This document shows, piece by piece, positions 8,482 through 40,605 of a DNA stretch of 64,000 nt. The translations under genes were made by a program, and so were the position numbers. Source of the stretch: Escherichia coli O127:H6 str. E2348/69 (GTDB taxonomy: Bacteria; Pseudomonadota; Gammaproteobacteria; Enterobacterales; Enterobacteriaceae). Location: assembly GCF_000026545.1 (NCBI RefSeq), contig NC_011601.1; one strand, written 5' to 3'. Within the stretch, counting starts at the first letter, position 1; each line of letters opens with the position of its first letter. The notes beneath the pieces are model-generated. The model saw only the letters and a list, made by a program, of their open reading frames with translations. It was not told the DNA's origin and made no database searches.

Positions 8482-9497
8482 TACTTACGCCCCGCCGCTA
8501 ACAGCTTGTCTAACTCGCCGCCGCTGGTGAAGTGGGTTTTCATCACTTCCGGCCAGGAGCCAAATTTATCTTCCACGCGGAACAGCTCGGTCTGCGGAAA
8601 TTTATCTTTCAGTTTGCCCATGACTTCCGGGTTATTTACGCGGTAGTAATAGTCGGTGATGATGGTTTGCGCCTGCGGGCTATAGAGCCAGTTCAGGTAA
8701 GCTTTTGCTGCTTTTTCCGTACCGTTGGCCTGCACATTTTTATCGACCCACGCCACCGGGAATTCCGCCAGAATGTTGGTTTTCGGAATCACCACTTCAA
8801 AGCCCTGCGCTTCATACTGTTTACGGATGTTGTTCACTTCCGATTCAAAGCTGATCAACACATCGCCCAGGCCGCGCTCGGCAAAGGTGGTAGTCGCGCC
8901 ACGACCGCCAGTATCGAACACTTCAACGTTTTTCAGGAACTGAGTCATAAACTGTTCAGTTTTGGCTTTGTCGCCACCGTCGGCTTTGTCCGCTGCGCCC
9001 CATGCCGCAAGGTAGGTATAACGCGCGTTACCCGACGTTTTCGGGTTCGGGAAAATCAGCTTCACATCGGAGCGCACCAGGTCGTTCCAGTCGTGGATAT
9101 TCTTCGGGTTGCCCTTACGCACCAGGAAGCCCATGGTGGAGTAGAACGGCGAGCTATTATTCGGCAGGCGCGACTGCCAGTCCGCTGGGATCAGCTTGCC
9201 TTTATCGTGCAGGATTTGTACGTCGGTCACCTGGTTATAAGTGACAACGTCGGCTTTTAAGCCCTGCAAAATCGCCAGCGCCTGTTTTGATGATCCGGCA
9301 TGAGATTGTTTAATCGTCAGTTTGTCGCCACCGTTATCTTTTGCCCATTGCTGTTCAAACGGCGGGTTCAGGGCGGCAAACAGCTCGCGGGAGACGTCAT
9401 AAGAACTGTTCAGCAGTTCCGTTGCCTGTACATGGCCCGCCAGTAGCAGAGAAGCGACCAGCACGAGTGAGTTCTTTTTCAGTAAGTTAACGGCCAT
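8481..9497 (-). CDS. cysP: Thiosulfate-binding periplasmic protein
   Basis: 338-aa ORF with signal peptide; first gene of the cysPUWAM operon. Confidence 0.95.
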
Positions 9498-36619: not shown

Positions 36620-37032
36620 TGCGTGTAGCGTTTATCGGTTTATTACCATACCCGACTCGTTTTTGGGCTTCTGCGCTAATTGCAAAGCCACATGCCCTGA
36701 TGGCTGACAGCATCATCCCGGCACAAAAGCGCCATACCGGTATTGCTGCTGCACGACGCGAAGCAAAGAAACGCAGGAGAGCAAAATGATGAAAAACCGT
36801 AAGGCAAGACTGCTGATAGCAAAGCCAGGGCAACTTATCCGTATCTCAAATCGACTTGTTGTTCACTATAGATATCTTGGTTTTAGGGAGTGGTCCTCTA
36901 TTCGTTTTTACGGTGTCTGGCGAAACAGAAGCGCGACACAAAACCGCTGGAAGAATCACACTAACGCAAAGTAATTAAATAATAACCAATAGCAGACCAA
37001 AAAGTATTTTTTGGTCTGCCAAAAGTGATGTT

Positions 37033-37320
37033 TTGGTCATTATGAAGATTGAACAAATCGGAATGGCAGCTTTCAGGCAACAGGCTGAAAGCGGTGGCGT
37101 GGATGAGTTCGTCGTGCAGCGGTTCGGTGGTGTGTATCATCTATTCGCTGTGAATCGCCGCGCCGGGGTGTCCTATTTTCTACAGGAACGTCGTGGCGAT
37201 TACAAGACATGGCTGTCTCTTGACCGTGCCGCTGCGTTCTTGTCAGGGATTGGCGTTTCACGTTTTACCGTGCGTTTTGAGGATAACAAACATGCTGAAA
37301 AAGATGATCGGGGCCATTAA
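37033..37320 (+). CDS. Hypothetical early protein
   Basis: 95-aa ORF (start may be the ATG at 37042). Confidence 0.4.
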   Translation: MVIMKIEQIGMAAFRQQAESGGVDEFVVQRFGGVYHLFAVNRRAGVSYFLQERRGDYKTWLSLDRAAAFLSGIGVSRFTVRFEDNKHAEKDDRGH

Positions 37321-37690
37321 AGCCGGTCAGGCGTATCTGGGGTGGGATGATGCCCTTTATCGCCAGACGCTGGCCCGCCTGACCGGTAAAACCAGCACCA
37401 CACGCTGCAATCTCGATGAACTGCGCATCATCCGGGAATACATGCACGAACAGGGATTCCCGCGCAAGGCACCCGCTGGTAAAGGTCGCCGCCCTCGTGT
37501 TGCAATGAGCAGAAAATCAGTATTATCCAAAATTGAAGCGTTGCTGGCTGATGCCGGTCGTTCCTGGGCGTATGCAGAAGGACTGGCATCTCACATGTAT
37601 AAGCAACATGTGATCGAATGGCTGACGGATGAACAGCTTTTTGGAGTGATGGTGGCGCTGGTTAAAGATTCAAGAAGGAGAAATCAATGA
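37292..37690 (+). CDS. GemA-like (Mu gp16 / DUF1018) regulatory protein
   Basis: 132-aa ORF MLKKMIGAIKAGQAYLGWDDALYRQTLARLTGKTS...; family assignment from memory. Confidence 0.55.
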   Translation: MLKKMIGAIKAGQAYLGWDDALYRQTLARLTGKTSTTRCNLDELRIIREYMHEQGFPRKAPAGKGRRPRVAMSRKSVLSKIEALLADAGRSWAYAEGLASHMYKQHVIEWLTDEQLFGVMVALVKDSRRRNQ

Positions 37691-38163
37691 TGAAAAAATG
37701 GTTGTTTTGTTTAGTAGGGGTTATTTTCTCTTGTTCTGTGCTGGCACAGACAGAGGAACAGGCGCAAAAGGAACTGAAACGTTATCAGGATATGAAGCCA
37801 TTGGCTGAACAGATGCTTCGGGAAAGTGGAAAACTTTATTACGCTATGCCAGAAGCTGCATCGCAGTATCAGCAGGGAAATATTGAAGAGTGGAAGAATA
37901 TCAAAAAAGGACTAAAACAACTGGATGAACAGGCCAGTAAACTGGGGGACGACCCGCTTGATCCTGTGTATGGTTCCTGCATAAAAATGAAAAACCAGCT
38001 ACAGGATTACTGGTCTAACGTTATCAGGGATGACAGGCAGTTTCTGGAGCGTTCAAGAAATCAGTTTAAAGAATATCGTATGGATTGTTTTGATTCGTTT
38101 GTTTTTGGTAAAGAGCAAATAGAATCAAGAAAAGGCCTGGTTATTCTAGACCTGACTAAATAA
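37687..38163 (+). CDS. Secreted protein with signal peptide (possible lipoprotein), last gene before the early terminator
   Basis: 158-aa ORF MMKKWLFCLVGVIFSCSVLAQTEEQ... Confidence 0.5.
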   Translation: MMKKWLFCLVGVIFSCSVLAQTEEQAQKELKRYQDMKPLAEQMLRESGKLYYAMPEAASQYQQGNIEEWKNIKKGLKQLDEQASKLGDDPLDPVYGSCIKMKNQLQDYWSNVIRDDRQFLERSRNQFKEYRMDCFDSFVFGKEQIESRKGLVILDLTK

Positions 38164-38174
38164 GACTTAGTTTA

Positions 38175-38200
38175 GCCCCTGCCATGCAGGGGCTTTTTTT
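38175..38200 (+). terminator. Rho-independent terminator ending the early transcript
   Basis: agcccctgc-catg-caggggct followed by 7 T. Confidence 0.65.
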
Positions 38201-38263
38201 GTGGTCTGTACAGGCGATCATGTATGGCTATAATAACAGTAAGTTACTACCGGAGACGCCATC

Positions 38264-38731
38264 ATGCAGACCTTCAGTGAAACAGATCTTCGCGATGCGC
38301 AGGCACTGCTGCCCGATTCCGTGCAGCAACTGATTAGCGTGATTGGCTTCCCCGCCCTGACCCGGTTGATTCGTTCTTTTGGTGGCGTGACGTTAAGCGG
38401 TAAAACCGGCGTACACGCCGAACGCACCGGCGGTGTCCATGCCCTGTTACATGACGTGCTCACCGAAGACGAAATCAACAAACTGATCCGCTTTCTTGGC
38501 GGTGCTCCGTTTTACATTCCCCGTTGCGATCATGCGTTACGTGCCCTGCGTAACACCCGTTTTATGGCTGATTTACAGCAGCATGTAAAAGACGGATGCT
38601 CACACCGGCAGGCGCTGGCACTGCTCTGTCCCCGTTACGGCATTTCAGACCGGTACGCATGGCAGCTGATACACCGACGACAAAAACAGACTTCGCTGAA
38701 AAGCCCCACCCAGGTGGGGCTTTTTGATTAA
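38264..38731 (+). CDS. Mor/C-family transcription activator
   Basis: 155-aa ORF directly after the early terminator, the position of the Mu middle/late activators. Confidence 0.65.
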   Translation: MQTFSETDLRDAQALLPDSVQQLISVIGFPALTRLIRSFGGVTLSGKTGVHAERTGGVHALLHDVLTEDEINKLIRFLGGAPFYIPRCDHALRALRNTRFMADLQQHVKDGCSHRQALALLCPRYGISDRYAWQLIHRRQKQTSLKSPTQVGLFD

Positions 38732-39897: not shown

Positions 39898-40426
39898 CAT
39901 TTTTGATGAAGTCCTGGGCAAAGAAGGCGGTTACGTCAATCACCCGGACGATAAGGGCGGTCCGACCAAATGGGGCATTACGGAAAAAGTCGCCCGCGCC
40001 CACGGATATCGTGGCGATATGCGCGATTTAACCCGCGAACAGGCGCTGGACATCCTTGAAGCCGATTACTGGTATGGCCCGCGATTTGACCAGATCGCCG
40101 CATTATCCCCTGATATTGCCGCAGAGCTGTGTGATACCGGTGTGAATATGGGGCCAACCGTGGCGTCCAGAATGCTTCAGCGCTGGCTGAATGTGTTCAA
40201 TCTGCGCGGCAGGCTGTACCCGGATATGGACGCAGACGGACGCATCGGGCCTCGTACCATCAGTGCATTGCGCGCCTTCCTGAATAATCGCGGTCAGGAC
40301 GGTGAACGGGTGATGCTGACGGCCCTGAACTGTACGCAGGGGGACCGCTATCTGGAACTGGCAGAGAAACGCGAGGCTAACGAATCGTTTGTTTATGGCT
40401 GGCTGAAGGAGCGCGTGGCGGTATGA
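39881..40426 (+). CDS. Endolysin (GH108-type lysozyme with peptidoglycan-binding domain)
   Basis: 181-aa ORF GGYVNHPDDKGGPTKWGIT... characteristic of the glycoside hydrolase 108 family as I recall it. Confidence 0.75.
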   Translation: MKSKDDIFDEVLGKEGGYVNHPDDKGGPTKWGITEKVARAHGYRGDMRDLTREQALDILEADYWYGPRFDQIAALSPDIAAELCDTGVNMGPTVASRMLQRWLNVFNLRGRLYPDMDADGRIGPRTISALRAFLNNRGQDGERVMLTALNCTQGDRYLELAEKREANESFVYGWLKERVAV

Positions 40427-40605
40427 CGCGTCAGCACTGGACCCACAGAACGCCACGTAAAGCCGCGCGCTGTGTTCTGGCCCTGTTTCTGGTGATGTTG
40501 CTTCCGGTGGGATGCACAGACATTAACAGAGCGGGCCAGCTGTTTGACGCGGCGGCGCAGGTCTGCCGGATTATCGATGGTATCCGGCAGTGTTCACAGA
40601 ACTGA
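40423..40605 (+). CDS. Small lipoprotein-like protein, possible spanin component
   Basis: 60-aa ORF with hydrophobic N-terminus ending ...LLPVGC; ATGA overlap with the endolysin stop. Confidence 0.4.
   Translation: MTRQHWTHRTPRKAARCVLALFLVMLLPVGCTDINRAGQLFDAAAQVCRIIDGIRQCSQN

Follow-up and report, generated by a model that had tools for sequence, protein, structure and literature searches.

Cor of phi80 and N15 and Llp of T5 are exclusion lipoproteins that plug FhuA. Spackle of T4, a helical bundle with one disulfide, is made early, resides in the periplasm and blocks the tail lysozyme of the superinfecting phage; its gene is expressed ahead of the late genes and its signal peptide is cleaved (PMC7677548). 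Llp, too, is made early (PMC9586334). Here we describe ORF158, a 158-aa open reading frame (ORF) lying between gemA and mor in a Mu-like prophage of Escherichia coli O127:H6 str. E2348/69; the window throughout is the whole stretch of 64,000 nucleotides of contig NC_011601.1 that was analysed. Sequence comparison indicates that ORF158 belongs to an undescribed family and that it sits in a slot of Mu-like prophages which is conserved in position, hypervariable in content and given over to exported proteins; we tentatively relate its product, in function, to Spackle.

Like Spackle (PMC7677548), ORF158 is a phage protein with a signal peptide, and it is predicted to be a soluble periplasmic all-alpha bundle with one disulfide. 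In contrast, there is no sequence or fold match between the two: mature Spackle has 75 residues and short helices, whereas mature ORF158 has 138 residues, four long helices and a C-terminal tail. Spackle targets the gp5 tail lysozyme and belongs to a virulent phage, in which it is not a swappable cassette, while ORF158 is a swappable cassette of a prophage. With Cor and Llp, which act at the envelope, ORF158 has in common that it is phage-encoded and exported; unlike them, it has no conserved lipobox cysteine, and its predicted fold is unrelated to theirs.

The gemA-mor slot of Mu-like prophages

Eighty GemA-anchored loci were taken from IMG/VR and analysed by script, and the slot counts cover 83 loci with enough sequence. 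Signal peptides were called throughout with a heuristic of our own, which considers the charge of the n-region, the hydrophobicity of the h-region and small residues at -3 and -1. By this measure the slot holds a signal-peptide protein in 59 of the 83 loci (~70%), compared with 60 of 563 background ORFs. The proteins encoded there fall into at least four sequence classes: the ORF158 bundle, a Sel1-like class related to the protein ORF112, a 'VDGYKGV' class, and the ORF174/L025 type. Every ORF158 homologue with known context lies in a Mu-like prophage, either in the gap between GemA and Mor or straight after Mor, ahead of the lysis genes. Accessory-gene hot spots are described for the Pseudomonas Mu-like phages of the D3112/DMS3 group (PMC4378225). 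Those hot spots resemble the present slot in being fixed positions of transposable phages at which unrelated accessory genes alternate, and differ from it in phage lineage and in position. To our knowledge, no description of that group presents its accessory loci as reserved for signal-peptide proteins.

Two further observations concern the slot. The gene of the secreted 'VDGYKGV' family, whose proteins have ~175 aa and begin with that motif after the signal peptide, lies directly 3' of Mor (L045, L049, L053, L056, L058, L061, L083, L084, L086 and L091); the family has a conserved C-terminus of its own (…N-L/M-x-x-D-L/I) and no Pfam match. In distant Mu-like phages (L041-L078), a non-coding motif, CCACTGAACCCCTTCACCTGAT, is conserved in the 25 nt past the stop of the slot gene (for example at 4352-4376 of L057), and is a candidate Mor-dependent promoter or operator marking the end of the early unit.

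In the window, the 2-kb region around ORF158 is 100% identical to the chromosome of E. coli O127:H6 E2348/69, an enteropathogenic E. coli (EPEC), and by RefSeq annotation the host element is a Mu-like prophage inserted in eutC. The prophage has a repressor-like gene on the opposite strand and, on the + strand, a ner-like gene, transposase A and B and small early genes, and onward from these gp16/GemA, WP_000976762.1 (ORF158), the Mor-family activator, two holins, a GH108 endolysin and head genes. An alignment of six alleles delimits a cassette whose 5' joint falls in the last gemA codons and whose 3' joint falls just ahead of the terminator; the GC content of the ORF158 gene is 0.40-0.44, against 0.53-0.56 in the flanks. 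Since the terminator is also present at empty sites, it belongs to the backbone and not to the cassette, and the same alignment assigns the mor promoter to the backbone as well. The main elements are as follows.

37292..37690, + strand: gemA (Mu gp16 family); Pfam GemA PF06252, E = 1.5e-18; RefSeq name 'gp16 family protein'
37676..38170, + strand: swappable low-GC cassette, limits approximate (~0.5 kb), from the six-allele alignment, which includes two empty sites, and from GC content
37687..38163, + strand: ORF158 coding sequence (158 aa plus stop, ATG start), WP_000976762.1, RefSeq "hypothetical protein", from the ORF list and homologues
38174..38201, + strand: intrinsic terminator with a 9-bp stem (38174-38194, 7 GC), a loop CAT (3 nt) and T7; also 3' of gemA at empty sites
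38207..38234, + strand: sigma-70-like promoter TGTACA-16-TATAAT (10/12 matches), directly 5' of mor, invariant in six alleles
38264..38731, + strand: Mor/C-family transcription activator; Pfam Mor PF08765, E = 1.7e-6; RefSeq annotation

The cassette is accessory. The gemA-mor backbone occurs at 90% identity or above in 57 of 5426 complete E. coli genomes, and only 22 of those carry a gene of the ORF158 family, nearly identical in 11 and a 76%-identical allele in the other 11. Backbones without ORF158 have an empty site, a 112-aa ORF112 with a weak Sel1-like motif, or a 174-aa ORF174; ORF112 and ORF174 are unrelated to ORF158, and both begin with signal peptides. At the empty sites (F163 and tcmA_3), 96 bp separate gemA from mor and gemA runs directly to the terminator. 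The alternative cassettes at this site (978-1316 of L002, 1032-1556 of L003 and 3396-3899 of L025, holding ORF112, ORF174 and a chimera, respectively) each encode a signal peptide and a pair of cysteines. ORF112, a Sel1-like protein, has its relatives in a larger family with an IIDV tail; ORF174 is a second type. Some E. coli genomes have frameshifted or truncated copies of the ORF158 gene (P0010, 106 aa; P0014, 66 aa), pointing to decay of the gene from time to time in resident prophages.

The alleles of the slot differ far more than their surroundings. Between E2348 and RM9088, GemA and Mor are 98-99% identical and ORF158 is 67% identical; the synonymous divergence (dS) of ORF158 is 1.28, with an omega (the ratio dN/dS of nonsynonymous to synonymous divergence) of 0.155, against a dS of 0.09-0.12 in the flanks. 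The first 38 codons of ORF158, which cover the signal peptide and the start of helix 1, are as little diverged as the flanks, placing a joint near codon 38. A second pair, the Salmonella-type loci L008 and L010, shows 97-99% identity in the flanks and 30% in the ORFs. These comparisons indicate that the alleles of the slot are old, are exchanged by recombination and are under purifying selection, and that they do not reflect fast divergence in place. The cassette of L025 is a chimera in which the ORF158 signal peptide precedes a different, ORF174-like mature domain, confirming that the region coding for the signal peptide acts as a recombination joint.

The morons of lambdoid phages, after Hendrix and Juhala, are accessory genes placed between conserved phage genes, and the sequence-only reading of this locus had taken ORF158 for a typical superinfection-exclusion or cell-surface moron. 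That label holds in part: like a lambdoid moron, ORF158 is inserted between genes that are adjacent in relatives, deviates from them in GC composition and is polymorphic for presence and absence. It fails in that ORF158, unlike lambdoid morons, has no promoter or terminator of its own, overlaps and is coupled to gemA, uses the terminator of the backbone, and has its recombination joints within coding sequence (the 3' end of gemA and the signal peptide). Because ORF158 borrows its transcription, translational coupling and termination from the gemA unit, it is not a self-contained moron.

The ORF158 gene and its product

The smaller features of the gene and of the predicted protein are the following.

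37675..37680, + strand: ribosome-binding site AAGGAG, 6 nt 5' of the ORF158 ATG and within the gemA 3' end, read directly from the sequence
37687..37746, + strand: signal peptide, residues 1-20, MMKKWLFCLVGVIFSCSVLA, with a predicted signal-peptidase-I cut between VLA and QT; the AxA site is conserved family-wide
37747..38133, + strand: predicted mature four-helix-bundle domain, with helices at mature residues 3-42, 47-66, 76-94 and 97-137 of the AlphaFold2 model
37978..37980, + strand: codon of Cys98, the first invariant cysteine, part of the motif P-V-Y-G-S-C; alignments A1 and A2 and every distant member keep it
38086..38088, + strand: codon of Cys134, the second invariant cysteine, from conservation and model geometry
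38134..38160, + strand: C-terminal tail GLVILDLTK, consensus [DE]-x-L-x-I-I-D-V-T-x, from the alignment; predicted local distance difference test (pLDDT) ~50 in both models

The sequence-only reading had proposed a 158-aa gene, the last of the early operon, with a clear signal peptide and a strong terminator behind it, and these elements are borne out. The frame is present at 37687-38163 on the + strand as described, and it is the final gene ahead of the terminator on the early strand. The terminator, a 9-bp GC-rich hairpin followed by T7, begins ten nucleotides past the ORF158 stop and has a minimum free energy of -17.6 kcal/mol (z = -2.4 against shuffled sequences); a second sequence variant of it among relatives, AACCTCCGC...GCGGAGGTT, folds a hairpin at the same position. 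The stop of gemA overlaps the start of ORF158 in the ATGA at 37687-37690, and no promoter-like site was found on the + strand between 36983 and 38207, a search that takes in 700 bp 5' of ORF158. Having no promoter of its own and a start that overlaps the gemA stop, ORF158 is expected to be made whenever gemA is made, and the arrangement indicates that it is translationally coupled to gemA. Homologues reaching down to 25% identity, together with the omega of 0.155 between alleles, rule out a spurious ORF and point to a genuine gene under purifying selection.

The signal peptide is built like a Sec signal, in three parts: the n-region is MMKK (+2); the h-region, LFCLVGVIFS, spans about ten residues and has a mean Kyte-Doolittle hydropathy of 2.74; and small residues occupy -3 and -1, with cleavage placed after residue 20, between VLA and QTEE. 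This layout, including the AxA-type site for signal peptidase I, recurs in every family member examined. Export of the ORF158 product through a Sec-type signal peptide is thus strongly predicted, and the product is most probably a soluble periplasmic protein.

AlphaFold2 predicts an all-alpha fold for ORF158, with the mature region forming four long helices (mean pLDDT 90.3, predicted template modelling score, pTM, 0.81). In this model Cys98 and Cys134 each lie about 18 residues from the turn between helices 3 and 4, level with each other on adjacent antiparallel helices, and both are kept in the whole family, down to 25% identity. We infer a Cys98-Cys134 disulfide that would staple the bundle; geometry and conservation that fit a disulfide point, in turn, to an oxidising compartment.

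Any long four-helix bundle tends to match any other, and talin, catenin and designed bundles score equally well, so that the likeness of ORF158 to the periplasmic four-helix domains of chemoreceptors and sensor kinases (Tar, Tsr, PcaY, QseE and TorS) is one of fold class and not of homology. Sequence identity to those domains is 2-13% and, unlike sensors of the 4HB_MCP type, ORF158 has neither flanking transmembrane helices nor a match to Pfam 4HB_MCP. Scans of ORF158 and ten relatives or alternative cassettes against Pfam, PHROGs, NCBIfam and PADLOC returned nothing above threshold, and PADLOC-DB held no family at E <= 1 for ORF158, hence no match to a known defence or exclusion system. Neither megablast of the region nor tblastn of the protein found a match in 50,697 phage records, and the best hit of a sequence profile search of the PDB had E = 0.18. 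The profiles of the lysozyme inhibitors Ivy, MliC/PliC, PliI and PliG did not recognise ORF158, nor did Pfam give a match to them; an NCBIfam 'C-type lysozyme inhibitor' match (E = 0.12) covers the signal peptide alone. Nothing specific was found in the literature on WP_000976762.1 or on an exported protein between gemA and mor.

The family that does emerge is small. Ten close relatives came out of a word-indexed search; they belong to E. coli, E. albertii, Salmonella and Yersinia. When 1.84 billion representatives were searched exhaustively with a profile, only 12 proteins matched; when two fragments and one unrelated 847-aa repeat protein are left out, the matches are 147-172 aa long and all have signal peptides. 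Iterated from the mature domain, the search reached convergence at 23 distinct proteins, spread over 34 loci. The ORF158 family is undescribed, matching no known family by sequence or by fold.

Possible exclusion at the envelope and its alternatives

We tentatively suggest that ORF158 may be an envelope-level exclusion factor, functionally akin to T4 Spackle; of the readings considered this is the best supported, and we regard it as possible rather than probable. Once in the periplasm, as a predicted disulfide-stapled bundle with a flexible hydrophobic tail, ORF158 would most likely bind one of two things: a portion of an incoming phage that is exposed to the periplasm, or a component of the host envelope through which other phages or colicins enter. 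The contact would be made by the surface of the bundle and the conserved tail. A cell carrying or replicating the prophage would thereby be protected from secondary infection, by exclusion in the functional sense of Spackle and not in that of the Cor or Llp lipoproteins. A function in conflict fits, circumstantially, a hypervariable slot for secreted proteins, its deep recombining alleles and its neighbourhood of lysis and regulatory genes.

Several points count against this suggestion. ORF158 has no homology to exclusion proteins in PADLOC, PHROGs, Pfam or NCBIfam; the signal-peptide calls come from our own heuristic; and, if ORF158 were expressed only after induction, the benefit of exclusion would be confined to the lytic cell. 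In many relatives, moreover, the family gene adjoins the lysis cassette, and a role in lysis fits that position equally well.

Such a role, in which a periplasmic ORF158 would act on the exported lysis proteins of its own phage and tune lysis as an antiholin-like protein, a binder of the endolysin or spanin, or an inhibitor of lysis from without, strikes us as unlikely. RI and Spackle of T4 are periplasmic phage proteins that affect lysis, and we count this in its favour. In distant relatives the family gene comes straight after Mor and just 5' of the holin or endolysin gene (X, Holin_2-3 in L014 and Mor, X, lysozyme, Rz in L018, X being the family gene), and in E2348 the first phage genes downstream are those of the holins, the GH108 endolysin and an ORF with a lipobox. 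However, the terminator and mor stand between ORF158 and these lysis genes. The family also accompanies different lysis cassettes, GH108 with two holins in E2348 and a GH24 Phage_lysozyme with LysC in L008 and L010, while prophages that share the holin WP_001372993.1 have the slot empty or filled by unrelated proteins. A family that occurs with differing lysis cassettes, in a slot that is dispensable, weakens the case for lysis control.

Lysogenic conversion, in which ORF158 would be expressed in the lysogen along with gemA and alter an envelope property of the host (stress tolerance, colonisation or EPEC virulence), appears to us quite unlikely. The gem operon of Mu is reportedly expressed constitutively and a case of lysogenic conversion (Paolozzi and Ghelardini 1992, cited in PMC3820752); ORF158 is translationally coupled to gemA, and low GC with presence/absence polymorphism is typical of conversion genes. 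Yet the search for a promoter of a separate orf92-gemA-ORF158 unit gave nothing convincing: the only match, at 36955-36983, scores 9/12, which is within chance expectation, and since this sole match is weak we claim no gem-type promoter. Members of the family occur only in Mu-like prophages, across many hosts and also in environmental metagenomes, so that the family is not tied to pathogens, and no similarity of ORF158 to known virulence factors was found.

The tail invites another comparison. In most members of the family the second cysteine is followed by a Pro-rich or acidic linker and then by a hydrophobic, strand-like end motif, as in EELAIIDVTQ, DDVEIIDVTQ, DDRIVIEVP, DTAVVPVWNMSN and, in E2348, KGLVILDLTK. 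The Sel1-like family of the slot shares this ending (GELEIIDVTK, DDLQIIDVAP), and in a profile-profile comparison of the two families the bodies are unrelated (probability 0.1%) and only the last 12 residues align. Because the codons of the tail vary synonymously, it is conserved at the protein level. It is conceivable, but distinctly improbable in our judgement, that the slot adjacent to GemA and Mor is a recombining arsenal of secreted effectors whose tail (L-x-I-I-D-V-T) would be a portable docking peptide for a common periplasmic acceptor, bound by beta-strand augmentation. One candidate mode is mimicry of the TolA box of TolB, by which the phage would hijack or block the Tol/Ton energy-transducing systems.

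Taken as a proposal in itself, a mimic of the TolA box (or TonB box), with the tail blocking Tol-dependent entry of competitors or loosening the outer membrane, is very doubtful. TolB uses its TolA box to bind TolA through augmentation by a parallel strand, with I25, V26 and I27 as key residues (PMC7066135). The tail has three hydrophobic residues in a row and then an acidic one (V-I-L-D in E2348, I-I-D in the consensus, R-I-V-I-E in P0018), resembling the N-terminus of E. coli TolB, EVRIVIDSG, whose sequence we verified; like TolA and TonB boxes, with I-V-I-D close to V-I-L-D and I-I-D, it is a short, hydrophobic strand motif carried by a flexible stretch of a periplasmic protein. That it follows a Pro-rich or acidic linker, is common to two unrelated domain families and is under protein-level selection also speaks for the proposal. 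Unlike the N-terminal TolA box of TolB, the tail is C-terminal; a PROSITE-type TonB-box pattern does not fit; and the likeness is that of a short hydrophobic strand, which may have arisen by chance. A fusion TolA(329-421)-(GGGGS)5-ORF158 was modelled with AlphaFold2 (block multiple sequence alignments for both parts, single-chain ptm model), TolA being the sole partner modelled. Both domains were confident (pLDDT 81-92 and 87-97), but TolA stayed apo-like, with its C-terminal helix and strand retained, and the tail did not dock, remaining a coil without a strand at pLDDT ~52, in what is a weak test for low-affinity complexes that require displacement of the TolA helix.

An outer-membrane lipoprotein of the Cor/Llp type, lipidated at Cys16 and blocking an outer-membrane receptor, is very unlikely: a permissive PROSITE-type lipoprotein pattern fits Cys16 (LFCLVGVIFSC) in the E2348 allele and in 8 of the 10 closest relatives, but the strict lipobox [LVI][ASTVI][GAS]C is absent, position -2 being Phe, P0003 (Yersinia, 82% identical) and P0005 (70% identical) have Phe in place of Cys16, the cysteine is missing from all 25 more distant members, every one of which keeps the AxA-type signal-peptidase-I site 4 residues downstream, and no similarity of ORF158 to Cor or Llp was found in PHROGs. 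The sequence-only reading had called ORF158 a possible lipoprotein, which is its weak point; lipidation in the E2348 clade keeps a small probability, and the loss of Cys16 from most relatives, with conservation of the AxA site and the Q after it, favours a soluble periplasmic protein.

Neighbouring sequence and wider meaning

In Mu itself the early operon ends with mor, and the promoter Pm lies downstream of that gene. The Pm of Mu is placed at about nt 9163 (PMC9239132). In the E2348 prophage only one gene of the Mor/C family is annotated, the strong terminator separates mor from gemA and the cassette, and a near-consensus promoter precedes mor (38174-38263); the regulatory cascade of the E2348 prophage may differ from that of Mu.

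Upstream of gemA, a perfect 12-bp palindrome, GCAGACCAAAAA-GTAT-TTTTTGGTCTGC (36975-37041), lies about 20 nt 5' of the small gene that precedes gemA and is conserved in 6 of 6 related backbones, even where the sequence upstream is mosaic. At the opening of a gem-type sub-operon it might serve as a terminator-like structure, as an RNA element or as a site for protein binding. Just ahead of it, at 36786-36974, is a 62-aa ORF (MMKNRKARLL...) that is absent from the RefSeq annotation of E2348/69 and homologous at its 5' end to annotated 60-aa genes of related prophages (for example 88-270 of L003). A separate gem-type promoter was considered for the apparent 250-bp gap at 36790-37033 and is not claimed, the gap being mostly this ORF, with about 67 nt left that hold a conserved hairpin.

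Downstream, the GH108 endolysin gene is overlapped at its end by a 60-aa ORF (40423-40605) that RefSeq lists as hypothetical; with its good lipobox (LLPVGC), this ORF may encode an outer-membrane lipoprotein of the spanin type. The prophage interrupts eutC, the gene of the ethanolamine ammonia-lyase beta subunit, which is annotated as a partial pseudogene at ~27944-28250 (2508-2945 of L001), so that ethanolamine utilisation is expected to be defective in E2348/69 as long as the prophage stays in place.

Enterobacteria and many other Proteobacteria commonly carry Mu-like prophages, whose accessory genes are largely unannotated. If the reading of ORF158 as a factor of exclusion or of envelope manipulation is true, the slot would supply new phage-resistance determinants and possibly probes of Tol, Ton and other periplasmic machinery; if it is false, what is reported here would still be a testable annotation for a 'hypothetical protein' in the genome of a reference pathogen.

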